The notes under the pieces are model-generated. The model did not search any database and was not told where the DNA came from. It saw only the letters and a list, made by a program, of their open reading frames with translations. From an uncultured Candidatus Saccharibacteria bacterium (GTDB lineage Bacteria > Patescibacteriota > Minisyncoccia > 2-02-FULL-40-12 > GWA2-44-9), in contig CAZKJF010000007.1 of NCBI GenBank assembly GCA_964553025.1, positions 1 through 62,663 on the forward strand: a stretch of DNA of 62,663 nucleotides, written 5' to 3'. This document shows, piece after piece, positions 8,769 to 60,235 of the stretch (position 1 is its first letter; every line of letters begins with the position of its first letter). A program made the position numbers and the translations under genes.

Positions 8769-9815
8769 TTAAGAGCTGCTGCGGCGGGATTCTTTCTGCC
8801 GCGCAACGTCATCAAGCATTTCGACGATAATCGTGGCCACCGGTACCGCCAAAATCATGCCCGGAATGCCCGCCAGCGTCTGGCCGACAAGCAATGCGAT
8901 GATAACCACGACGGGATTGAGATTGAGCGTTTTGCCGAGAATCAGCGGCACCAAGATATGATTTTCAAGCTGCTGAACGACGACGTACAGAATGATCACC
9001 CACAAACCTAGGGATGGCGATTGGAGAAAGGCCAAAAATGCTGCTGGAATGGCGCCGAGTACGGGACCTACCATGGGCACTAATTCCAGCACCATCATCA
9101 AGAGGCTCAAAATCAAGGCGAATTTAATATTTAGCAGCGACAGCCCGATATATACCATCAAGCCGACGATAAGACCCAGGAGCAGCTGGCCCTGGAACCA
9201 TTTGCCGACTTTCTTTTCGACGCGTTTCCAGAGGCCGGTGACATAGCTTTCATACTGCTCCGGCACTACGGATCCCAAAAAAGTTTCGATGCCCTTGCGC
9301 GTCACCGACAGATAGAACGAGATGACAAGAATCGCAAAAAACGAGAAGACGCCGCCGAACACGCTGACGATCAAACCGACAATAGACTGCGAGGCCTGCT
9401 GAAGATATGAAGAAAATCCTTCCAGGATATTCTCGATCTCGTTCAAAAAATCAAAATATTGGGGCGAAGAGTTTTGGACGTGCTCCAGCGAACCGACTAC
9501 TTTCTGAACGAACTCCGGCAGCGCCGTCGTGAGCCGGCTGATGTCATCGGAAATATAGGGCACGATCAGCGACGAAACGAACACCGCCAGACCCAGCACG
9601 GACAGGTACAGGAGCAGAACGCCCAGAATGCGCGGAAATCTTTTTTCATCAAGCCAATTTGCAAAGGGCGAAATTGCCGACGCGAGCACGAGCGCGAAAA
9701 GAAAGATAATAATTACTTCTTTCAGGGCATAGAGGAACACAAAGAGCAGCACAATGAGAATCGTGCGGAGAATGCTGCTGGTCGAGATGTCGAGCTGAAG
9801 ACGTTCGGATGCCAT
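8769..9815 (-). CDS. AI-2E family transporter (PerM-like permease)
   Basis: 348 aa polytopic membrane protein with the C-terminal GxPG..LAVP pattern of the family. Confidence 0.8.
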   Translation of the reverse strand: MASERLQLDISTSSILRTILIVLLFVFLYALKEVIIIFLFALVLASAISPFANWLDEKRFPRILGVLLLYLSVLGLAVFVSSLIVPYISDDISRLTTALPEFVQKVVGSLEHVQNSSPQYFDFLNEIENILEGFSSYLQQASQSIVGLIVSVFGGVFSFFAILVISFYLSVTRKGIETFLGSVVPEQYESYVTGLWKRVEKKVGKWFQGQLLLGLIVGLMVYIGLSLLNIKFALILSLLMMVLELVPMVGPVLGAIPAAFLAFLQSPSLGLWVIILYVVVQQLENHILVPLILGKTLNLNPVVVIIALLVGQTLAGIPGMILAVPVATIIVEMLDDVARQKESRRSSS

Positions 9816-11108
9816 TTAGGAAAGCGTTAGCAATTTCTTGAACGGTTCGGAATCTTTGAACGGGCCGATCAAGGCGAGATTCAGGCGGTCATCACGGAAT
9901 ACTTCGCCAGCAATGGTCTTAATTTCCTCGGCCGTAATTGCTTTAATTTTATCCAATTCTTCTTCGGGGGTCAAAACACGGCCCTCAAACAAAACCGGGC
10001 CGGCGTAGGCCTGGGCCACTGAACGGGAGTTTTCAAGCATGATGGCAAGGCTGCCTTCGGTTTTGTCCTTGGCTTTCTGCAGTTCTTCGTCGGTCACCCC
10101 CCCATCCCGGATCTTCTTGATTTCTTCGATGATGACTTTGATTGCGTCGAAGACTTTCTCGTTGTTGACGCCGGCATTGCAGGTAAACAATCCTGTATCG
10201 GTATATTCATCGGCTGACGCGCCGACGTAGTAGGCCAAGCCGCGCTTATCGCGGACTTCCTGAAAAAGCCGCGAGCTCATGCCGCCGCCGAGAATGGAAG
10301 CCAGCACACCCAGGGGATATTTCCGGCTGTCATGCATGTGAACCCCCCGGAAGCCGAGAATGAAATGGGTCTGATCGGTTTGCTTGAATTGGATCTTGAG
10401 CTGGGGTTCGGATTGCTGCTCCACCACCGATAATTTGGAAACTTTTTCGGCTTGGCGGATAGTTTTGAAATATGATTCGGTTTTGGTTTTGATCTCTTCG
10501 GGATCAATGTTGCCCGCGACCGCAACCACCGTGTTGGAAGCGATATAGTGGGTCGTGAAATAGTCAGCGAATTGCTGGCGGGTCAGTTTTTTGATGACCT
10601 CTTTTTCTCCCGCGATGCCCCAGCCGGCCGGCTGGTCGCCGTACAGCAAATGCTCGAACACTTCTTCGACATGGCGCTGCGGCAAATCCTGATACATATT
10701 GATTTCTTCGATGATGACGCCGCGTTCGCGATCAATTTCTTCCTGATCCAGACGCGAATTCAAGAAAATATCAAAGACGACATCCATGACTTCGGAGAGT
10801 TTTGACGAGCTGGCCCGGGCATAGTAGCCGGTATATTCCTTGCCAGTGAAGGCATTGAAGTCGGCGCCGATGCCTTCAAGCTCTTTGGCGATTTGGAGCT
10901 TGTCGGGACGCTTGGCTGTCCCCTTGAACATCATATGCTCAAGGAAGTGGGAGATGCCGTTAATGTCTTTCGTCTCGTATTTAGAGCCCGTACCGACGAG
11001 CACCAAAACCGTAACGGTTTTGGTGCTCTCCATCGGCACTGCCACCAGGCGCAAGCCGGAGTCGAAGGTATAGAGTTTATGCGGGAATACGGAGGTAATG
11101 GAAGTCAT
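9816..11108 (-). CDS. M16-family zinc peptidase (pitrilysin-like)
   Basis: 430 aa with the inverted zinc motif HFLEHMMFKGT. Confidence 0.9.
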   Translation of the reverse strand: MTSITSVFPHKLYTFDSGLRLVAVPMESTKTVTVLVLVGTGSKYETKDINGISHFLEHMMFKGTAKRPDKLQIAKELEGIGADFNAFTGKEYTGYYARASSSKLSEVMDVVFDIFLNSRLDQEEIDRERGVIIEEINMYQDLPQRHVEEVFEHLLYGDQPAGWGIAGEKEVIKKLTRQQFADYFTTHYIASNTVVAVAGNIDPEEIKTKTESYFKTIRQAEKVSKLSVVEQQSEPQLKIQFKQTDQTHFILGFRGVHMHDSRKYPLGVLASILGGGMSSRLFQEVRDKRGLAYYVGASADEYTDTGLFTCNAGVNNEKVFDAIKVIIEEIKKIRDGGVTDEELQKAKDKTEGSLAIMLENSRSVAQAYAGPVLFEGRVLTPEEELDKIKAITAEEIKTIAGEVFRDDRLNLALIGPFKDSEPFKKLLTLS

Positions 11109-15492: not shown

Positions 15493-15535
15493 TTATCGTT
15501 TGTCAATATATATTTATCGTTATCTGTGGATAACG
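15493..15535. promoter_or_regulatory. candidate operator: TTATCGTT x2 plus palindrome CGTTATC-tgtg-GATAACG
   Basis: Direct repeats at 15493-15500 and 15514-15521, and a 7-bp inverted repeat at 15518-15535. They lie in the divergent intergenic region upstream of the DUF2975/XRE operon. Confidence 0.35.
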
Positions 15536-27974: not shown

Positions 27975-28823
27975 CTACTGGGTGCAGGAATTCCGCAGAT
28001 GCACAATTCCTGCTTTGTCGCGCTCCACGCACAGATCAGTGTACTCCATCATCAGTACACCGTCGATCTTGGCATTGGAGCCAGTGTTCTGCTTGCGGAA
28101 CCGGTATTCTGTTTCCGCCCATGGCACACATGCCGTCCGACCGGAACCAATGGTCAGGTCGCTTCCGTCCATGGCGATCATGGCTTCCGTATCATTCCGG
28201 ACACGAACCGAACCCGGCGTGCAGACGGAAGACTGCGGCATGGAGTACGAAACTTCTGATCCGGCTTCAGCAGCAACAGATCCTACCGAAGCCAATGCCG
28301 CACGTTGTGCGGCGGCTTCTTCAGCGAGAAGCTGAAGCTGCCGAGTGGCGGCTGTTTGAGCCACCATCATGTCAACATCCGGACGCGAGATGTTCATCGC
28401 CGTTGGAACCATGCGTTCCGTATTCTGGCGACGATGGCCGGCAATAGAATCCGCAATGATGCCCGCAACGGCGCCGATCGCGGCTCCCTTCAAGGTTCCG
28501 GAGACCCGACCATTACTGGCCATCGCTCCGATGACGGCACCGGCACCGGCCCCAAGGGCCGTACCGCCGCCGATTCTGATCCGAAGGGGACTGCCGAGGC
28601 GACGGCCGCTCAAAAGGGCCATAGCCATGAATGTCCCATCCTGAAGATAGTATCCGCGATATCCGCCGTAGACGGCGGAATACATCGCAAATTCCGCGGG
28701 GGAGATCTGCGACCGCGCTGCCAGGATTCGAGCCTGGTTGATCGCGATCGAGACGTTATCCTGGGCAGCCGCCGGAACGGCGGCTGCCAGAAACAAACAG
28801 AGAACTGCGAGTACAGGTTTCAT
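27975..28823 (-). CDS. secreted glycine-zipper protein (hypothetical, GC-rich)
   Basis: 282 aa: signal peptide MKPVLAVLCLFLAAAVPAAAQ, a glycine-zipper segment GGGTALGAGAGAVIGAM...GAAIGAVAGII, and a Cys-containing C-domain. Confidence 0.7.
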   Translation of the reverse strand: MKPVLAVLCLFLAAAVPAAAQDNVSIAINQARILAARSQISPAEFAMYSAVYGGYRGYYLQDGTFMAMALLSGRRLGSPLRIRIGGGTALGAGAGAVIGAMASNGRVSGTLKGAAIGAVAGIIADSIAGHRRQNTERMVPTAMNISRPDVDMMVAQTAATRQLQLLAEEAAAQRAALASVGSVAAEAGSEVSYSMPQSSVCTPGSVRVRNDTEAMIAMDGSDLTIGSGRTACVPWAETEYRFRKQNTGSNAKIDGVLMMEYTDLCVERDKAGIVHLRNSCTQ

Positions 28824-28876
28824 GCATCACCTCGTGAAAGCTCGCGCTCGCGCGTCGAGCGGGAAAAATGTCCAAG

Positions 28877-29108
28877 GGTGTCACCGGTGACATGTCACCA
28901 GTGACACCATCCAATTGTGAACGTGCTGTCACCTTGCTATGGCTACATTATATCAAATTTATACTGTTTTGTAAAGTGGTATAATATAGCCTAAAAACAC
29001 CGTTTTCAGGGGTGACGGGGTAACACACTGTAGTGTCATGGTGTCACCTGTCACCTCTGGCACTGGTGACACCTATTTTGACACCAGTGTCACCTATTCA
29101 GTGTCACC
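28877..29108. repeat. array of GTSAC cores (GGTGACA/TGTCACC heptamers), left array
   Basis: 11 exact GTGAC/GTCAC sites starting at 28880, 28887, 28894, 28901, 28928, 29012, 29043, 29050, 29066, 29089 and 29103. Includes a 32-bp near-palindrome at 28877-28908 and an AT-rich core at 28940-29000. Confidence 0.9.
28947..28975 (-). promoter_or_regulatory. candidate promoter TTTACA-17-TGaTATAAT for the glycine-zipper operon
   Basis: On the minus strand the -10 is the complement of 28947-52 with an extended TG, and the -35 is the complement of 28970-75. The 32-bp palindrome lies in the predicted 5' UTR. A plus-strand TGgTATAAT (28977-28985) sits back to back with it. Confidence 0.5.
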
Positions 29109-29110
29109 CC

Positions 29111-29482
29111 TTACTCAATATTTTTATAGTGTCGAATCTTTGCTACTTTATGCTTAAGATCAAGGGTAACCGCGACTACATCCATTTGCCACAGAGTTTC
29201 TTCTCCTAGACGATATTCGATCAGAAAAGTCCGGGCGATTCGTTCCATCCGAACCTGCTTGGCATGATTAACGCGAAGCTCCGGTTCAAATCCTGCCATC
29301 TCTCGGCTATTGGTTTTTACTTCAACCAGAACAACAACCCCTTCTTTTGACGCAATAATATCTGCCTCGCCCCACGGTTTTCGGTAGTTTTGAGCCAATA
29401 TACGATATCCCTTTTGGCTTAAATAGCGAGCCGCGTATCTCTCTCCCACCGCCCCGATAAAGATATGTCTATTTTGCGTCAT
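29111..29482 (-). CDS. yraN: YraN-family (UPF0102) endonuclease-like protein
   Basis: 123 aa. GERYAARYLSQKGYRILAQNYR...GEADIIA...VLVEVK is typical of the family. Confidence 0.85.
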   Translation of the reverse strand: MTQNRHIFIGAVGERYAARYLSQKGYRILAQNYRKPWGEADIIASKEGVVVLVEVKTNSREMAGFEPELRVNHAKQVRMERIARTFLIEYRLGEETLWQMDVVAVTLDLKHKVAKIRHYKNIE

Positions 29483-29524
29483 TCCCCCTTACTCTACCAC
29501 CAGAAAATCTATCCACAAACCCGA

Positions 29525-29553
29525 TTGACCAAGGGCTAGTTTTGTGATACCCT
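29525..29553 (+). promoter_or_regulatory. candidate promoter TTGACC-17-TGaTACCCT
   Basis: Read directly from the sequence. The same TGATACCCT 9-mer recurs upstream of gatC (54820-54828). Confidence 0.4.
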
Positions 29554-29580
29554 TAGAGCACGTTCTCGTCCAGAGAACTT

Positions 29581-30720
29581 TTGTCTTTGTTAAGGCCAAA
29601 TCCCATTTTTACAGACCTCAAAAAATCGTTGCGTCGCTTGCGCATTTCCGGTTCTACCGGCTATGCTGGCTTTAAAAAAGCAGCCACTCATAAAGGAGTC
29701 CAGTTGTATGCCACTATCGGTCTTGCACTTATCCTGATCGTCTTAAAAAGCCAAACCGGCGACGAATCAGGATTTTTTAATTCGGTTGTCCATCATTACA
29801 TCGAAGAGACATCAGCTGCCATCAATGCTTCGGGCCCCGATGACCAGTTAGCTGATATTAGCGGGTTGGCAGTCCAGCAAGATACTTCCGGCCGCGGATC
29901 GGATATTAACCTCCTCTCTTCTTCAATCCAGGAGAATTCAATCGTAGCTTCCGATCCGAGCTCAACCGATTACCTGACAAGTTTTTTGCCCAACAAAATA
30001 ATCGAATATACCGTACAGCCAGGCGACGCTATTTCATTTATTGCATCCGACTTCGGCGTGAGCGTGAATTCAATTATTTGGGCCAATAATTTAAAGAGTG
30101 CTGATGCAATTAGTCCTGGTCAAGTACTTAAAATCCCTCCAATTTCCGGAGTTATTCATACGGTTGCAAAAGGCGATACGGTTTCCAGTATTGCCAAAAA
30201 ATACAATGCAGATGCGGACAAAATTGTCGCTTTTAATGACATCAATGATAATCAATTAACGATCGGTAATGATATTGTAGTTCCTGCAGGAACTCCGGCC
30301 GGTTCCTCTAAAGTTTCTTCTTCATCAATCGTTGTCTCTACCGCTCAAAATTTTTCTCACCTCCCTGATCTTGGCGATTATTTCCTTATTCCGACAACCG
30401 GCTATGATTGGGGGATTATCCATGATCGAAACGGTGTAGATATAGCCAACTCTTGCGGTACGCCGATTCACGCGGCAGCTGACGGATCAGTCGCAATTGC
30501 ACTCTCTAGCGGCTGGAATGGCGGTTTCGGTGAATACATCAAATTGATCCACGGAAATGGCACTGAAACATTGTACGCTCACTTAAGTAAACTTTTTGTC
30601 AGTGCAGGAGAAACTGTCACCAAAGGTGAGACTATTGCGCTCATGGGCACAACTGGCCATTCAACAGGATGTCATCTCCATTTCGAAGTTCATGGCGCCA
30701 AGAATCCGCTTGCAAAATAG
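29581..30720 (+). CDS. LysM-domain M23 family metallopeptidase
   Basis: Two LysM repeats (YTVQPGDAISFIASDFGV, HTVAKGDTVSSIAKKYN) and a C-terminal M23 domain (HxxxD-type GVDIA..., GHSTGCHLHFEV). An alternative TTG start at 29704 is preceded by AAAGGAG. Confidence 0.9.
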   Translation: MSLLRPNPIFTDLKKSLRRLRISGSTGYAGFKKAATHKGVQLYATIGLALILIVLKSQTGDESGFFNSVVHHYIEETSAAINASGPDDQLADISGLAVQQDTSGRGSDINLLSSSIQENSIVASDPSSTDYLTSFLPNKIIEYTVQPGDAISFIASDFGVSVNSIIWANNLKSADAISPGQVLKIPPISGVIHTVAKGDTVSSIAKKYNADADKIVAFNDINDNQLTIGNDIVVPAGTPAGSSKVSSSSIVVSTAQNFSHLPDLGDYFLIPTTGYDWGIIHDRNGVDIANSCGTPIHAAADGSVAIALSSGWNGGFGEYIKLIHGNGTETLYAHLSKLFVSAGETVTKGETIALMGTTGHSTGCHLHFEVHGAKNPLAK

Positions 30721-32268
30721 TTAAACAGCTCCGGAAGCCACTTTTTCGTTGATTTTTAAACTCATCGCTTCGGCAATATGCTTTTCTCCAACATACTGAG
30801 AAGCGTCAAGATCGGCTATTGTACGGCCGATCTTTTTGATTTTATGGTATGTGCGCAATGATACATTCTTGGCTGAAATAAATTGCCTCAAGAGCGATTC
30901 GGCAGATGGAGTAAGGATACAGAATAAGTCTATGTTTTTGTAGCTAATTTCAGCATTATTTAAAATATCAGTTCCCAAAAAGCGCTTCTCTTGAATGGCT
31001 CGAGCTGCCGCTACCAAGTGTCTTACTTTTTTAAACTCCTCAAGGGGCATAAGATCGTTTGTTTTTTCGAACAGAGAGGTTTCTCGAGGGACGAGAACTT
31101 GGATATCAATACGATCCAAGAGGGGGCCTGATATTTTCTTTCGATAGCGAGTGATGTTAATCGGGGAACAGACGCATTCTTCACTGGAATTTCCCAAATT
31201 ACCGCATGGGCATGGATTCATAGCCCCTATAAGCATAGATTTGGCCGGTAGACGCACGGAACCCGCTGCACGTGAGACTGTGATCATTCCTTCTTCCAGC
31301 GGCTCTCTAAGGCCCTCTAAAACGTTTCTGGAGAATTCGGGTAATTCGTCGAGGAAAAGTACGCCACGATGGGCTAAGCTAATTTCGCCGGGCCGAGGAC
31401 TGCTTCCGCCGCCGACAATAGCGGCGGCGGAAGCAGTATGGTGAGGATTTCGGAAGGGCCGCTGATGGGGAAATACGCCGTTTTTAAGTAATCCAAGCGC
31501 GCTATATATCCGAGCAACTTCGATTGCTTCAGAAAATAACAGGGGAGGCAGTAAATCCATTAAAGACTTAGCCAAAAGCGTTTTTCCTGTTCCCGGCGGC
31601 CCGCTCATCAAGAGATTGTGGCCGCCGGAGGCGGCCACAATCAACGCTCTTTTAGCTGCATATTGACCCTTAATCATGCGAAACGAATCGCCGCCGCCCT
31701 GCTCATCTTCCAAGGAAGGCAGGAGAGTTCGCTCAGCTGGGGTAATAAGCAACTTTCCGGAAAGGTGAGAAATAACAGCAGTAATACTAGATACGCCAAA
31801 TATGGAAACACCTTCAACGACAGCTGCTTCGGCTTGATTGGCTGCAGGGACGAAGATTTCTTTAAAGCCGGCGTTTCGAGCCATTAAAGCGGCTGAAAGA
31901 ACACCATTTACGGCTTTTACTGAACCGTCCAAGGATAATTCTCCCAAAAAGAGTTTGTCCGAAGTCTGGAAAGAGACCTGCCGAGTCTCCAGGAGATACC
32001 CTACAGCAATGGGAAGATCATATGACGGCCCCTCTTTTCGAATATCAGCCGGCGCGAGGTTGATAATAATCTTTTTGTGTTTTGCGCTCGGAGGAGCGAG
32101 GCGGTTGGCCCGGATTGCCGAAGCAATCCGCTCTTTTGACTCTTGAACTGCCTTATCGGGCAACCCCACGATGCTGAAAGCATGCAAACCCGGCGTAGAG
32201 TCAACCTCAACCTCGATTAATTGAGCATCAATCCCGGTTATGGCGGCCGAAAACAATCGTACAGACAT
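30721..32268 (-). CDS. comM: Mg-chelatase-like ATPase ComM/YifB
   Basis: 515 aa: Lon-protease-like N-domain, Walker A GPPGTGKT, and a C-terminal Mg-chelatase subunit ChlI-like region. Confidence 0.95.
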   Translation of the reverse strand: MSVRLFSAAITGIDAQLIEVEVDSTPGLHAFSIVGLPDKAVQESKERIASAIRANRLAPPSAKHKKIIINLAPADIRKEGPSYDLPIAVGYLLETRQVSFQTSDKLFLGELSLDGSVKAVNGVLSAALMARNAGFKEIFVPAANQAEAAVVEGVSIFGVSSITAVISHLSGKLLITPAERTLLPSLEDEQGGGDSFRMIKGQYAAKRALIVAASGGHNLLMSGPPGTGKTLLAKSLMDLLPPLLFSEAIEVARIYSALGLLKNGVFPHQRPFRNPHHTASAAAIVGGGSSPRPGEISLAHRGVLFLDELPEFSRNVLEGLREPLEEGMITVSRAAGSVRLPAKSMLIGAMNPCPCGNLGNSSEECVCSPINITRYRKKISGPLLDRIDIQVLVPRETSLFEKTNDLMPLEEFKKVRHLVAAARAIQEKRFLGTDILNNAEISYKNIDLFCILTPSAESLLRQFISAKNVSLRTYHKIKKIGRTIADLDASQYVGEKHIAEAMSLKINEKVASGAV

Positions 32269-32307
32269 GTCAGGAATACAGCAGTTAAATCAAACAGGAA
32301 TACTGAC

Positions 32308-32337
32308 AGTATATATCAGATTACAAAAAACTGTCAT
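32308..32337 (-). promoter_or_regulatory. candidate proximal comM promoter ATGACA-18-TATACT overlapped by a 7-bp inverted repeat
   Basis: The -10 is the complement of 32308-13 and the -35 is the complement of 32332-37. The inverted repeat TGACAGT (32304-10) / ACTGTCA (32330-36) spans both boxes. Confidence 0.45.
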
Positions 32338-32343
32338 TTTTCA

Positions 32344-32487
32344 GAAAAAAAAGCAGCGCAGGTAGCGCTCTTTCGGTCAAAAATGAAAAGGGTAGAGAAA
32401 AAGCGACATCTGCGCTGTCTATTGTATGGCTGCCGGCGATCCGCAGCTAATTTCGAAACCGCTAGACAGCAATCATTACGAGGTACT
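32344..32487 (-). ncRNA. candidate ~140-nt small RNA or attenuating leader upstream of comM
   Basis: Starts just downstream of the distal promoter (32494-32522). Contains an 8-9 bp helix GCTGTCTA/TAGACAGC enclosing further stems. Ends in hairpin AGCGC-N5-GCGCT plus U8, where the U-run is the complement of the A-run at 32344-32351. Confidence 0.35.
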
Positions 32488-32493
32488 GAATAA

Positions 32494-32522
32494 AGTATAG
32501 AGTGAGAGGTGACAGGTGTCAA
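32494..32522 (-). promoter_or_regulatory. near-consensus promoter TTGACA-17-TATACT
   Basis: The -35 is the complement of 32517-22 and overlaps one GGTGTCA repeat. The -10 is the complement of 32494-99. Confidence 0.55.
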
Positions 32523-32681
32523 TGTAATTTGTGGATAAGGTGTCATTGGTGTCATGTGTCACCAATGACACCTCTGTCACCATAATTTTTTGGCTTTAAT
32601 TCTTAACTATTTTAGGTGACATAGTGACAGGTGACACTGTCACTATGTCATGGTGACAACAGTGCCATGTCACCTTGTCAC
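32509..32681. repeat. array of GTSAC cores (GGTGACA/TGTCACC heptamers), right array
   Basis: 10 exact GTGAC/GTCAC sites starting at 32509, 32558, 32576, 32616, 32624, 32631, 32639, 32653, 32669 and 32677, plus at least 4 GTCAT/GTCAA variants. Perfect inverted repeats of 13 bp (32539-51/32560-72) and 14 bp (32617-30/32637-50). AT-rich core at 32583-32613. Confidence 0.9.
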
Positions 32682-32688
32682 CATCCTA

Positions 32689-32729
32689 TCCACACCACCG
32701 CCCCGGTATAACCGGGGCGGTGGTGTGGA
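32689..32729 (-). terminator. 18-bp perfect GC-rich hairpin downstream of 32754-34100
   Basis: TCCACACCACCGCCCCGG-tataa-CCGGGGCGGTGGTGTGGA. No clear U-tract on either strand. Confidence 0.55.
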
Positions 32730-32753
32730 CGAACAACATATCTTTTTGTTCCT

Positions 32754-34100
32754 CTAAGACCCTACGGTTTGAGAGAAGAGCCGGATGGCATCAATTGCCG
32801 CAAACATTGCTTCCCTTGACCCGGCCATGATCAAGTATGACTTGCCTTGATACGATAAGATTCCATAATCAATCGAGGCATCGGGGAATGCAAAATTCTT
32901 GTAGCGAACCGAGGTGCCCTGATAATCGGTACTCAAGAAAGGATCAACATTTTTACTGGGTGTAATAGCAAAAAGGGAAGCAAGATCATTGGACATCGTT
33001 GGTTCCCAACTCTGCAGGGTTCCATAGGCCGGACTCGTTAATTCAGTAATGAAGACAAGGCGTTTTGCTCCTGTCGATGCTTGTGCTATCTTGCCGGCGC
33101 TGGTAAATGCTTCTTGCTGTCCGTAGACCAGAACAACCGAATCGCTGCCAATCAGATTGTTAATATCAGCCGGATAGTTGACGAGGAATCGGGAAAGAAG
33201 CTGAAAGGGCGTTAATGCAATCGTAGCATTGGCATCCGTAACCGTAATCTGCCCAAATAGCCCTAAAGAAGGAGTCACGCTGGTCTTATACGAGCTTAGG
33301 AATGCCTGAAGCGCATCCCCAGTAGCCGGCAATGCAATCGTGGCGGCCCGAGACGGAAAAATATCGCTTAACCGTACATTTACTGGCGTAGGTGTCGGCG
33401 TAACGGTTGGAGTCGGTGTTTCAACGACAACTTCTTCAGTATCACGAATAAAGAAGTACCAATACCCTCCGCCCAAAACGAGGGCAGCAGCTAAAATACT
33501 TAACAAAACAATAAGTGGACGGCGGGAAGTTCCACCGCCCAGGCCGGCTTCAGGCACTGAAAACTGACTCTTTGCTTCAGGAGCAGCAGGTTGGGGAGCG
33601 GGCGGCGTTTGACCAGGAATACGCGGCAAGAAAGGTGCCGGCGGAGACGACTGGGTGGGTCCTAGTGTGGCTGTAGGACCGGACGAGCGAGCTACTGGAG
33701 CAACCGGAACAGAATGTTGAGGGGTCGGTGTCGGCGTGGCAGGCATCGTAGGGGCCGTGGGGACCCTTCGCGGAGTAGTTATTCCCTGAAGCGGCTGTCC
33801 CGCTTTTAGCTTGCTAACATCATCATTCATGGTACGAATGTTCGATTGATATTCCCGAGGCTGAACTTGGGGTGCCGGAGAACCGGGAATAGTCGGCGCC
33901 GGTGAAGGAGCTGGTTTGGGAGCGGCAGGCGCGGGCCGAGAAACTGGCGCGGGTGATGGGGTATTGGGAGCCGTAGGAACAGACTGAGAAGGAGCGCTAG
34001 AAGTCGTTCCTCCGCCTTGCGGACGGCTCAATTCTTTAACCAATTCATCAATATTTACTTGCGGATTTGTCGGTGGATTCTGGCCCGGAACATCTGCCAT
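32754..34100 (-). CDS. proline-rich membrane-anchored protein (hypothetical)
   Basis: 448 aa: a roughly 190-aa Pro/Ala/Thr-rich low-complexity N-region, one TM helix (LIVLLSILAAALVLGGGYWYFFI), then a globular C-domain. Confidence 0.75.
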   Translation of the reverse strand: MADVPGQNPPTNPQVNIDELVKELSRPQGGGTTSSAPSQSVPTAPNTPSPAPVSRPAPAAPKPAPSPAPTIPGSPAPQVQPREYQSNIRTMNDDVSKLKAGQPLQGITTPRRVPTAPTMPATPTPTPQHSVPVAPVARSSGPTATLGPTQSSPPAPFLPRIPGQTPPAPQPAAPEAKSQFSVPEAGLGGGTSRRPLIVLLSILAAALVLGGGYWYFFIRDTEEVVVETPTPTVTPTPTPVNVRLSDIFPSRAATIALPATGDALQAFLSSYKTSVTPSLGLFGQITVTDANATIALTPFQLLSRFLVNYPADINNLIGSDSVVLVYGQQEAFTSAGKIAQASTGAKRLVFITELTSPAYGTLQSWEPTMSNDLASLFAITPSKNVDPFLSTDYQGTSVRYKNFAFPDASIDYGILSYQGKSYLIMAGSREAMFAAIDAIRLFSQTVGS

Positions 34101-37332: not shown

Positions 37333-37431
37333 GGGTATATGAAATTTAGGACAAATCAATTCTATCACAAACTCGGCCAAATTACAAGACCCCGGTTCCC
37401 ATCGATTCCTGTACATCGTATAATGATACTT

Positions 37432-38343
37432 ATGGACGTAAAGACTCTCAAACAGCAGTATCTCGAGTACCTGGAGATCGAAAAAAACCGATCGCCAAAA
37501 ACCCTTGAGAACTATAACCGATACTTGGATCGGTTCCTGCAATTCGCCAAAATCTCCAGCCCTGTCCAGTTGGATGAAGAGAAGGTCCGGATGTTTCGGC
37601 TATGGCTGAATCGCCAGACCGACCGCGACGGCCAGCCGCTCAAGCGTATCACTCAAAACTACCACATCATTGCCATCCGCAATTTCTTAAAATATCTGGC
37701 TAAGCGCGGCGTGAAGAGCGTCTCGCCGGAAAAGATTGAACTTGGCAAACAAGAAGACCGCCATGTTACGTTTCTTGAAAATGAGGAATTGAACCGACTG
37801 CTTGATTCGCCGAAGGGGAACGACCTGGACGCATTGCGGGACAAAGCCATTTTGAGCATGCTCTTTAGCACCGGCATGCGCGTCTCCGAACTCTGCTCGC
37901 TGAACCGGGATAAAGTCGACCTGAAACGCGGAGAATTGTCGGTCTTAGGAAAAGGTCGCAAAATCCGTCTCGTGTTCATTTCTGACCAAGCGCGCGACCA
38001 CATCGGGAACTACCTGGATAAACGAAAAGACGCCGACGAAGCGCTCTTCATCCGGATCCCCAAAACCGGCACCTACACCAAGGATAGCGACCTGCGTCTG
38101 ACGCCGCGCAGCATCCAGCGAATCGTTAAAAAGCATGCCGTTCAAGCGGGAATTATGGGCAAAAAGGTTTCCCCGCACACGCTTCGGCACTCATATGCTA
38201 CCGATCTGCTCCGCAACGGTGCCGATATCCGTTCTGTTCAGGCTATGCTCGGCCACTCATCCGTCACCACGACTCAAATTTATACCCACGTCACCGATAC
38301 CCAGCTCCGCGAAGTCCACAAAAAATATCACGGGAAAAAATAA
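37432..38343 (+). CDS. tyrosine recombinase, XerC/XerD-like
   Basis: 303 aa from MDVKTLKQ: SAM-like N-domain, then catalytic R...HxxR...Y (HTLRHSYATDLL...TQIYTHV). TATAAT lies 7 nt upstream of the ATG. Confidence 0.9.
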   Translation: MDVKTLKQQYLEYLEIEKNRSPKTLENYNRYLDRFLQFAKISSPVQLDEEKVRMFRLWLNRQTDRDGQPLKRITQNYHIIAIRNFLKYLAKRGVKSVSPEKIELGKQEDRHVTFLENEELNRLLDSPKGNDLDALRDKAILSMLFSTGMRVSELCSLNRDKVDLKRGELSVLGKGRKIRLVFISDQARDHIGNYLDKRKDADEALFIRIPKTGTYTKDSDLRLTPRSIQRIVKKHAVQAGIMGKKVSPHTLRHSYATDLLRNGADIRSVQAMLGHSSVTTTQIYTHVTDTQLREVHKKYHGKK

Positions 38344-41554: not shown

Positions 41555-41649
<95 letters not shown>

Positions 41650-59569: not shown

Positions 59570-60235
59570 CTATTTACTGATCATCCTGCCAAGCGTAAGC
59601 AAGTCATAATACACGTTTGCTGAAAGATAATCTATCACACATACCCCCCTATAGTCCACTTTCCGAGATGGTTTGCCGATCGTTCGCGGATCCACGCGCG
59701 TCTTATAAAATTGTCGACGAGAAATACCTGTAACATTCGCCCAAAATCTTTCAAGCTTCTTTATATTTTGATCAGCCCGACACAGAACAGTACACCTAAA
59801 TCTTGGTTCTTCAATAGTATAGCAACGCTTCAATAACCCAAGAAAGAGTCTCACGACCCCAGGATCGGAATTTCCCAATCGCAGAGCGCCACGGGAAGTT
59901 TTTGATCCTTCTCCCAGATAGAGGGCGGCAAGAACCAGTTTTGAAGCGTACGGATTCTTGTTTAAAATATCTAACAAATGCGCATTTTTATTTTCAATAT
60001 TAATAAAATATTTTTGTCTTTTCTTTTTTCGGACAGCAAGAGATTTTAATCGTGCTCTGGCCAGTTTCACGCTGATACTTTTAGCTATTTTTTCTTTTTG
60101 GAAATGAGATAATTCGACACCTCTTAACCAGTAGGAGAGGGTGCTTTTCGATACTTTTGGTATTAACGATGCGATTTCGGAGTAGGTTTTTCCTGACTTT
60201 CTCAAGTCAATCGCTCTTTGCTTAAAATTATACAT
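59570..60235 (-). CDS. LAGLIDADG-type homing-endonuclease-like protein with N-terminal HTH
   Basis: 221 aa. HTH segment KSGKTYSEIASLIPKVSKSTLSYWLR. A single LAGLIDADG-like motif LAALYLGEGSK is followed by LRLGNSDPGVVRLFLGLLKR. The stop codon lies 1 nt from tRNA-Ala. Confidence 0.6.
   Translation of the reverse strand: MYNFKQRAIDLRKSGKTYSEIASLIPKVSKSTLSYWLRGVELSHFQKEKIAKSISVKLARARLKSLAVRKKKRQKYFINIENKNAHLLDILNKNPYASKLVLAALYLGEGSKTSRGALRLGNSDPGVVRLFLGLLKRCYTIEEPRFRCTVLCRADQNIKKLERFWANVTGISRRQFYKTRVDPRTIGKPSRKVDYRGVCVIDYLSANVYYDLLTLGRMISK

Follow-up and report, generated by a model that had tools for sequence, protein, structure and literature searches.

Arrays of the heptamer TGTCACC around comM in a Paceibacteria-type genome: conserved promoter-associated site clusters and a candidate winged-helix binder

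The 62,663-nucleotide contig CAZKJF010000007.1 (hereafter the window, 62.7 kb, the whole stretch of DNA analyzed here) carries a block of three genes, yraN, a LysM-M23 peptidase gene, and comM, flanked by two dense arrays of the heptamer TGTCACC/GGTGACA, and raises the question of what such arrays do there. To our knowledge, hardly anything has been learned of how genes are regulated in the Patescibacteria, or Candidate Phyla Radiation (CPR), whose members have tiny genomes and few recognizable regulators and are thought to depend on DNA and nucleotide uptake from other cells; our literature search on the heptamer motif and on CPR regulons returned nothing relevant. ComM homologues place the window in the Paceibacteria/Yanofskybacteria type of CPR, the closest genome record by ComM being "Candidatus Paceibacterota bacterium SMAG_U6019" (87% ComM identity). 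Groundwater samples from Hainich contain close relatives. The answer that we favor, with a confidence only a little above even, is that the arrays are clusters of operator-type binding sites, used in either orientation, for one protein of this clade, probably a winged-helix protein, that controls competence-related genes. The exact heptamer is found 23 times in the window, against 3.6 ± 2.1 expected (100 dinucleotide shuffles, none of which reached 23), and 17 of the 23 fall within 409 bp that make up two intergenic stretches, A1 (28877-29110; nine exact boxes plus the variants AGTGACA, TGACACC, and TGGCAC) and A2 (32508-32682; eight exact boxes plus TGTCACT/TGTCAT variants). The six other exact boxes, in ~62 kb, are at background level, and no 250-bp stretch of the window outside the arrays contains more than two copies of GTCAC/GTGAC. 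The arrays are real and non-random, and the original prediction was right in confining this density to the two of them. Boxes occur in both orientations in A1 and in A2; some units abut, many follow at a pitch of 8 bp, and others are irregularly spaced, the single run of four abutting heptamers being located at 28879-28906. Pfam supports the identities of the bracketed genes: yraN (29111-29482, minus strand; UPF0102, nuclease fold), the LysM and M23 peptidase gene (29581-30720, plus strand), and comM/yifB (30721-32268, minus strand; ChlI-N, Mg-chelatase AAA+, and C-terminal domains). The bracketing itself holds, but A2 is not exactly at the block end as had been proposed, since a promoter, an RNA gene of ~150 nt, and a second promoter lie between A2 and comM; the interval first assigned to the pair, 28877-32729, also overreaches, positions 32692-32730 being the minus-strand terminator hairpin of the upstream gene (32754-34100), outside the array.

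A2 is organized as a promoter module. A σ70-type promoter on the minus strand (32494-32522; TTGACA-17 nt-TATACT) has a TGTCACC box (32508-32514) inside its spacer, and just upstream of the -35 hexamer stands the element TTATCCACA (32530-32538, minus strand), which equals the DnaA-box consensus; TTATCCACA or TTATCAAC is kept at the same position in relatives. A promoter-proximal cluster follows (32538-32585; TGTCACC at 32557 and 32575 (+), with GTGTCA/TGACACC variants), then an AT-rich center (32586-32614) that contains TTAAAGCCAA, a conserved word whose reverse complement is at 32590-32599, and then a distal cluster (32615-32682; boxes at 32615, 32630, 32652 (-), 32668, and 32676 (+), and TGTCACT at 32624 and 32639) that exhibits, on the comM strand, a conserved '>> ... 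<<' layout. The module is shared by 13 aligned lineages, where it reads on the comM strand as distal '>>' then '<<' boxes, an AT-rich stretch containing TTAAAGCCAAT, the proximal pair GGTGACAtGGTGACA, cTTATC(C/A)ACA, the -35 hexamer TTGAC, a '<' box, and the -10 hexamer TATA(C/A)T. Of the 13 lineages, 12 have the '<' box of the spacer, at about -20 (L141 is without an exact box there; L numbers designate related loci), and the direct pair at 8 bp is the commonest box spacing in the aligned modules, with nine occurrences. The upstream gene behind the terminator encodes a conserved, Pro-rich, single-transmembrane surface protein of 448 residues and not a transcription factor.

The relatives, gathered through ComM homologues, a genome scan, and a metagenome scan, show how far this arrangement extends. 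Of 57 Paceibacteria-type loci (some 45 distinct), 56 have a cluster of at least four boxes between the membrane-protein gene and the RNA, dksA-like gene, or comM, and such upstream clusters persist at orthologous promoters down to 52-57% ComM identity; the comM loci of Saccharibacteria, Eubacteriales, and Clostridium have no arrays. In the exception, L132 (9600-9800; Yanofskybacteria lineage), part of the boxes are changed to GGTGCCA/TGGCACC, which may reflect a change of specificity co-evolving with the binder. In the window this variant occurs singly, at 29058 and 32662. Between the window and the relative at 87% identity, L129, the arrays are 84-86% identical and the adjoining terminator region is unalignable, and single-base changes flip the orientation of a box, from GGTGACAC to GGTGTCAC, with the box retained. 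As judged from these alignments, the boxes appear to be kept by selection.

A1 resembles A2 in having an AT-rich center with a near-consensus σ70-type promoter on the minus strand (28947-28975; TTTACA-17 nt-TATAAT, extended TG, 11 of 12 matches), whose hexamers are identical in L129. The promoter is directed at the gene at 27975-28823 (minus strand), assigned to a glycine-zipper (OsmB/YMGG-like) exported protein by two family matches that are both below curated cut-offs, and has five boxes upstream and five more at about +7 to +60. The downstream cluster (28877-28933; TGTCACC GGTGACA TGTCACC AGTGACA in the abutting run, plus TGTCACC at 28927-28933) is thus located within the 5' untranslated region of the glycine-zipper gene and is also kept in L129, and the upstream cluster (29012-29110; TGTCACC at 29042, 29049, 29088, 29102 (+), and 29065 (-), with the variants GTGAC at 29012, TGGCAC, and TGACACC) is placed between the promoter and the yraN stop codon. 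In both arrays, therefore, boxes overlap core promoter elements or the early transcribed region, as do those covering the -35 hexamer and spacer in L005. The base composition changes at A1, from a GC content of 0.57 at 27-29 kb (the glycine-zipper gene and a gene for a 273-residue protein) to 0.44 at 29-31 kb; the high-GC side varies among relatives and the low-GC comM block is the conserved side. The two arrays had also been said to share strings in direct orientation, and all four strings cited are present in both on the plus strand, but each consists of the heptamer plus 1-3 flanking bases. When the boxes are fixed in place and the remaining positions shuffled, direct-orientation sharing does not exceed chance (five 9-mers against 6.9 expected, p=0.81; two 10-mers against 2.3, p=0.60), and the strings are therefore uninformative beyond the heptamer. 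Sharing in inverted orientation is above chance (15 9-mers against 6.7, p=0.006; 11 10-mers against 2.4, p=0.0025) and includes the 14-mer CACCTGTCACCTCT at 29045-29058 (+) in A1 and 32505-32518 (-) in A2, where it coincides with the spacer box of the RNA promoter; A1 may be the product of a partial inverted duplication of A2.

Sequence comparison suggests that A2 is an ancient conserved module and A1 a younger, lineage-specific one. The second array is found after yraN in the window, L129, and L130; as three boxes over the promoter of the next gene in L005; directly after the comM terminator, between the convergent comM and M23 genes, in L134/L338; and in frame within the comM inter-domain linker, with the open reading frame (ORF) intact, in L272, L357, and L283; it is absent from L002, L006, L008, L135, and others. 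Where paired, the arrays around comM are 0.6-3.6 kb apart. The bracket would thus be one of several lineage-specific ways to place two arrays around comM: it is not a conserved property, because many relatives have one array only and others carry the second after or inside comM. The same distribution makes the suggestion that the arrays are boundary or insulator elements less likely. The in-frame arrays in comM linkers (L272, 2770-2841; L357, 3524-3662; L283, 4411-4457) have counterparts in ComEA, HHH_3, or LTD genes (L374, 10844-10921; L376, 13204-13317; L377, 10866-10964; L378, 10746-10832; L375, 16904-16987), and in these the boxes occur in both orientations, the ORFs are intact, and the repeats are translated as GD., VT, and MSP. 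They would be a clear case of coding DNA doubling as a dense protein-binding array.

Gene order in the relatives bears on the proposal that the arrays are recombination sites, whether att-like or arm-type sites, sites of an invertible or excisable cassette acted on by Xer, or the ends of a comM island. Several features could be read in this way: a block lies between the arrays, a gene for a tyrosine recombinase (37339-38343, XerC/D-type by Pfam) is located 4.6 kb away, the GC content falls at A1, and three contig ends lie inside arrays, both ends of L001 and one of L130 (at 13413). Furthermore, GTCACTAT within A2 resembles the core of the λ Int arm site, a candidate that was set aside on spacing, repeat number, or taxonomy. 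However, the relatives share the order Xer-S15-NYN-PNPase-membrane protein-(dksA/TraR-like)-comM-M23 (opposite strand)-yraN-...-TsaE-PolA, and the relative orientation of comM, M23, and yraN is constant in all loci spanning the block; the comparison of synteny that had been suggested as a check, covering ~45 related loci, found the block core and its orientation unchanged and no spanning locus with the block missing or inverted. This constancy removes the island, att-site, and invertible-cassette readings at the evolutionary scale. The ~300-residue Xer gene product is of the XerC/D type, part of conserved housekeeping synteny and the only recombinase here, no arm-binding integrase being at the edge of the block; neither direct repeats beyond the heptamer nor a target duplication flank the arrays; most relatives have one array only; and the second array changes position, even into comM. 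The contig breaks can probably be put down to palindromic repeats such as GGTGTCACCGGTGACATGTCACCGGTGACACC. On the comparative evidence the recombination and island readings are wrong and largely refuted, and we regard a residual role of this kind as most improbable. For annotation, the lesson is that a jump in composition and flanking repeats do not, in this case, make the comM block an island. The assemblies of L001 and L130 are independent, and their ends inside arrays are probably due either to such palindromes or to microdiversity among strains in the number of boxes. In L002-L004 (1987-4176), the syntenic Xer-type recombinase comprises 729 residues, with an intein that contains a LAGLIDADG domain.

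Downstream of the A2 promoter lies a structured RNA (32346-32493, minus strand; covariance model 85.6 bits, E 5e-21), either a small RNA (sRNA) or a leader, with a hairpin P1, a long terminator stem, and a T8 run; its terminator (hairpin plus T8 at 32369-32355) is about 140 nt past the promoter, and the ends of the transcript are predicted at about 32487 (5') and 32346 (3'). The ~130-170-nt stretch after the conserved promoter aligns over 13 lineages as a hairpin followed by a long terminator stem. The covariance model finds exactly one copy per comM-type locus (~45 distinct loci; for example, L002 9450-9578 and L130 9374-9501) and none elsewhere, including the winged-helix loci described below and non-Paceibacteria loci. 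Over 35 distinct sequences, 97% of the cells pair and 15 of 19 pairs show compensatory changes, a level that none of 500 shuffles and no slid control came near. Rfam assigns the RNA to no family at gathering thresholds (window and seven relatives), and an E-value scan of 28780-32800 returned only spurious miRNA-type hairpins over palindromic boxes. As far as these alignments and searches indicate, the RNA is structured and previously undescribed; it may act in trans as an sRNA, or in the manner of a riboswitch as the leader of the dksA-like gene. Most relatives have, after the RNA, a gene for a 118-residue DksA/TraR-type zinc-finger protein and then comM (for example, L002, region 9578-10000). 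This gene is absent from the window (region 32269-32345), L001/L129, L134, and L007. The window lineage has lost the dksA-like gene and kept the RNA, and in the place of the gene there is a second, comM-proximal promoter-like site (32308-32337, minus strand; ATGACA-18-TATACT), downstream of the RNA terminator and kept in L001/L129.

Arrays also occur at one further conserved locus type, where a winged-helix gene, a comEA-like or LTD gene, and a giant surface-protein gene meet. The complete metagenome scan (pattern GGTGACATGGTGACA-N0-30-TGTCACC, which favors one arrangement of boxes) returned 103 stretches, about 45 of them comM-type loci and most others on high-GC contigs; where dense arrays occur on low-GC, CPR-like stretches, the locus is either of the comM type or that of a winged-helix gene. 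In L350, L347, L326/L358, and L308, the array comes right after the stop codon of a gene for a ~195-residue protein, and past the array are a TTATCCACA-type promoter and the giant surface-protein gene. Of the 74 homologues detected with a profile of this protein, the few that have a source name are Yanofskybacteria or unclassified "bacterium", and the family is restricted to CPR-like sequences. Six homologue loci picked without regard to arrays (20 kb each) all contain, downstream of the gene, a single array of 7-8 boxes, typically laid out as '< >>>> <<<', and no further array. The array is 140-280 bp from the gene in four of the six, and 2.6 and 6.3 kb off in the other two, where the intervening genes include an IS200-type transposase. 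At all six loci the array is within or adjacent to comEA-like genes, in most cases in the segment that encodes the linker of a ComEA (TIGR00426 above cut-off), HHH_3, or LTD protein, and one winged-helix locus, L374, is on the same 330-kb contig as the comM locus L006. The AlphaFold2 (AF2) model of the ~195-residue protein (pLDDT 89.8) comprises an N-terminal four-helix bundle, without any structural match, and a C-terminal winged helix for which Foldseek reports a resemblance to MecI/BlaI, ArsR/SmtB, and AspA (E about 0.007-0.07) and which superposes on BlaI/MecI and ArsR/SmtB with a root-mean-square deviation of 0.9-1.9 Å over about 57-68 residues; Pfam and NCBIfam matches of the protein are all below cut-offs. 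The candidate would thus be like the BlaI/MecI and ArsR/SmtB repressors in its predicted C-terminal winged helix and unlike them in its unmatched four-helix bundle. Adjacency and the predicted fold make this protein probably the cognate binder.

The operator-cluster reading is therefore preferred because the promoter overlap is conserved, the boxes seem to be kept by selection, and, over the loci covered, the arrays are limited to two locus types, both with competence-related genes (comM and comEA-like). Co-regulation by one factor, as the original prediction had offered among other readings, is best supported by this overlap, the conserved A2 module, and the comEA-type second locus; it is essentially right, if incomplete. 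The A2 promoter drives the ~150-nt RNA, which ends at the intrinsic terminator and is followed in most relatives by the dksA/TraR-like gene and comM. On this reading, cooperative occupancy of an array would occlude its promoter, as suggested by boxes in the spacer, over the -35 hexamer, or at +7 to +60. A multimeric binder, likely the CPR-specific protein with its four-helix bundle and BlaI/ArsR-like winged helix, may further bridge a pair of arrays at distances of 0.6-3.6 kb, so that the DNA between them would be looped out or silenced, and the heptamer would mark a small competence-related regulon. The sites with their conservation and promoter overlap, the RNA, and the second locus type are established from sequence; binding, the sign of regulation, looping, and the identity of the binder are what we infer, with occlusion and bridging deduced from the geometry of the sites. 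Such an architecture recalls the looping operators of lac (O1/O2/O3), gal, deo, and λ (OL-OR), which likewise combine a primary operator on the promoter with auxiliary sites, some in coding sequence (as lac O2), here 0.6-3.6 kb off; it differs from them in having 10-18 sites per cluster and in that looping is conjectured from geometry. Fur-type hexamer arrays (the GATAAT-array view) also have repeated units in either orientation. MatP/matS (GTGACRNYGTCAC), CtsR (GGTCAAA repeats), WalR (TGTWAH-N5-TGTWAH), WhiA (GACAC), and CRP/Rex were considered and set aside on spacing, repeat number, or taxonomy. The locus brings together a cis-element under conservation, a candidate for the protein that recognizes it, a new RNA, and a link from comM to comEA-type genes; the novel RNA target, the arrays in coding linkers, and the candidate CPR-specific regulator make it unusual.

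Several observations weigh against regulation by operator clusters and this binder. The window contains no homologue of the winged-helix protein in its 62.7 kb, and Pfam analysis of 20 window proteins and all small ORFs reports no ribbon-helix-helix (RHH) or helix-turn-helix (HTH) candidate near the arrays, the only HTH protein in the window being a homing-endonuclease-like HTH_23 protein (59570-60235). The link between gene and array may be inherited synteny (DUF5671-FKBP-winged-helix gene-ComEA/LTD-giant surface protein) rather than an independent association, and the scan pattern that delimited the locus types is partial to one box arrangement. Winged-helix proteins seldom bind sites at a pitch of 8 bp, which would better suit an RHH protein. 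Finally, some arrays are not at promoters and lie between the convergent comM and M23 genes (L134) or inside comM and comEA-like linkers; their function is therefore not simply that of a promoter element. Such arrays would fit a roadblock or bridging role, and equally a role unrelated to transcription, and because of them centromere-like and iteron-titration readings retain a low probability.

The first of these readings holds that the arrays are centromere-like or chromosome-organizing sites that nucleate a partition or bridging complex, as ω/ParG or AspA do, the promoter overlap being secondary. The closest described DNA architecture is indeed that of the arrays of the RHH ParB protein ω of plasmid pSM19035 (parS/PcopS, Pδ, and Pω operators) and the ParG tetramer-box arrays of TP228. 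The parS sites of pSM19035 comprise 7-10 heptads WATCACW, direct or inverted, that overlap promoters and bind one RHH dimer per heptad (PMC9499535). The arrays described here similarly consist of ~7-10 short, non-palindromic 7-bp units with the core TCAC (TGTCACC as compared with WATCACW), some of them abutting, with, as in pSM19035 (PMC9499535), several arrays per replicon. The small number of arrays per genome region, the intragenic or convergent position of some, and the presence of the centromere binder AspA among the Foldseek matches of the winged helix agree with this. However, the arrays are chromosomal, belong to CPR, are often spaced or at 8-bp pitch, in part lie in coding regions, and have a winged-helix candidate, and no ParA, ParB, or RHH gene occurs near any of them, in the window or in 20-kb relatives; the ω system, by comparison, requires at least four contiguous heptads (PMC9499535), a number that the run at 28879-28906 reaches. 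A spacer box and a whole module kept before one RNA gene in about 45 lineages argue for transcriptional control, and a centromere-like role seems to us improbable. The in-frame arrays in comM and comEA-like linkers could instead be seen as the work of selfish palindromic repeats, related in kind to miniature inverted-repeat transposable elements (MITE), repetitive extragenic palindromes (REP), or the Rickettsia palindromic elements (RPE), which also lie in frame inside other genes; such repeats would spread and sometimes insert in frame with no host function, and the internally inverted array layout is suggestive of this. The arrays are, however, not near-identical dispersed copies of one element with defined ends: each has its own number, spacing, and order of boxes, which point mutations alter, only two locus types are involved, and the module is fixed in position relative to the promoter, which makes a selfish origin very unlikely.

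The iteron-type reading supposes a Rep-like winged-helix initiator acting in replication or copy control, with a winged-helix locus that would be origin-like, combining a rep gene, iterons, a DnaA box, and AT-rich DNA, and comM arrays that titrate or handcuff the initiator, as do the extra iteron sets crr for P4 ori and incA for P1. The original prediction had listed iteron-like sites, and this holds for the architecture only: short repeats in both orientations flank an AT-rich center beside a perfect TTATCCACA, as in the origins of phages and satellites (P4 ori/crr with the α primase-helicase, λ O, SaPI ori), and the 3.4 kb between A1 and A2 is reminiscent of P4 ori and crr, which are likewise a few kb apart. 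In IMG/VR contigs (GC 0.40-0.71), from hosts whose GC content differs widely, dense TGTCACC arrays are numerous and either follow directly on primase-helicase genes (Prim-Pol, PriCT_2, D5_N, VapE) or are placed within genes for O-like initiators, and because of these positions they are taken to be ori iterons. Examples among L009-L128 are L076 (1287-1560), L118 (12025-12330), L014 (6622-6790), and L099 (6918-7092). There is a weak resemblance between the CPR winged helix and the winged helices of phage initiators and helicases. The profile of the CPR winged helix matches five viral ORFs, all overlapping TGTCACC iterons, as compared with none in 1.13 Mb of control loci, a weak link that also favors the candidate binder; the independent count is lower than five, since three of the five are near-identical. 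TGTCACC arrays occur in 48 of the first 120 viral loci (among the matches listed), more often than do arrays of two control heptamers built to the same near-palindromic design, which are found in 20 of 83 and 13 of 45 viral loci; the phage parallel therefore reflects iterons in general, a matter of architecture and not of homology, and a phage descent of the arrays was rejected in favor of analogy. At the comM locus there is no initiator, primase, or helicase-loader gene, the neighbors being yraN, M23, comM, the surface-protein gene, and PNPase. Cumulative GC skew declines monotonically over the whole window, without a switch in the 29-33 kb region; the 14 DnaA boxes do not amount to an enrichment over the 10.2 expected; and the genes on either side of the winged-helix loci are mostly co-directional. 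Unlike iteron origins, the arrays also reside in core chromosomal synteny with a fixed promoter geometry. We consider replication or copy control by iterons unlikely, and an oriC was rejected on the skew and the DnaA boxes. DNA uptake sequences (DUS, or uptake signal sequences, USS) were also rejected, as they need about one site per kb and only six boxes are found in the ~62 kb outside the arrays. A speculative extension of the operator-cluster reading, which we hold as possible though rather doubtful, would draw on both parallels: competence control in CPR may rely on a winged-helix protein derived from a phage initiator and domesticated as a regulator, which would bind iteron-like arrays flanking or within comEA-like genes and comM, with paired arrays bridging and silencing the DNA and the RNA gating the dksA-like gene and comM.

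Regarding the TTATCCACA element, the related word TATCCACA occurs four times in the window, always in intergenic positions: 15525-15532 (-), 29510-29517 (+), 32530-32537 (-), and 32687-32694 (+). Three of these sites are just upstream of a putative -35 hexamer, of the RNA, the M23 gene (29510-29517), and a DUF2975 gene, and the fourth (32687-32694) marks the distal edge of A2, beside the terminator of the upstream gene. In relatives (L350, L347, L326, L374, L379), TTATCCACA-N-TTTTGCTATTG-N17-TATAAT precedes giant surface-protein genes. TTATCCACA/TATCCACA may thus not be a DnaA box but a promoter-proximal element specific to the clade. Elsewhere in the window, ARAGORN reports a tRNA-Ser with anticodon ACT at 41559-41649 (minus strand), beside a tRNA-Ser(GCT); a Ser tRNA with A34 would be unusual, and the prediction may be a mis-call.

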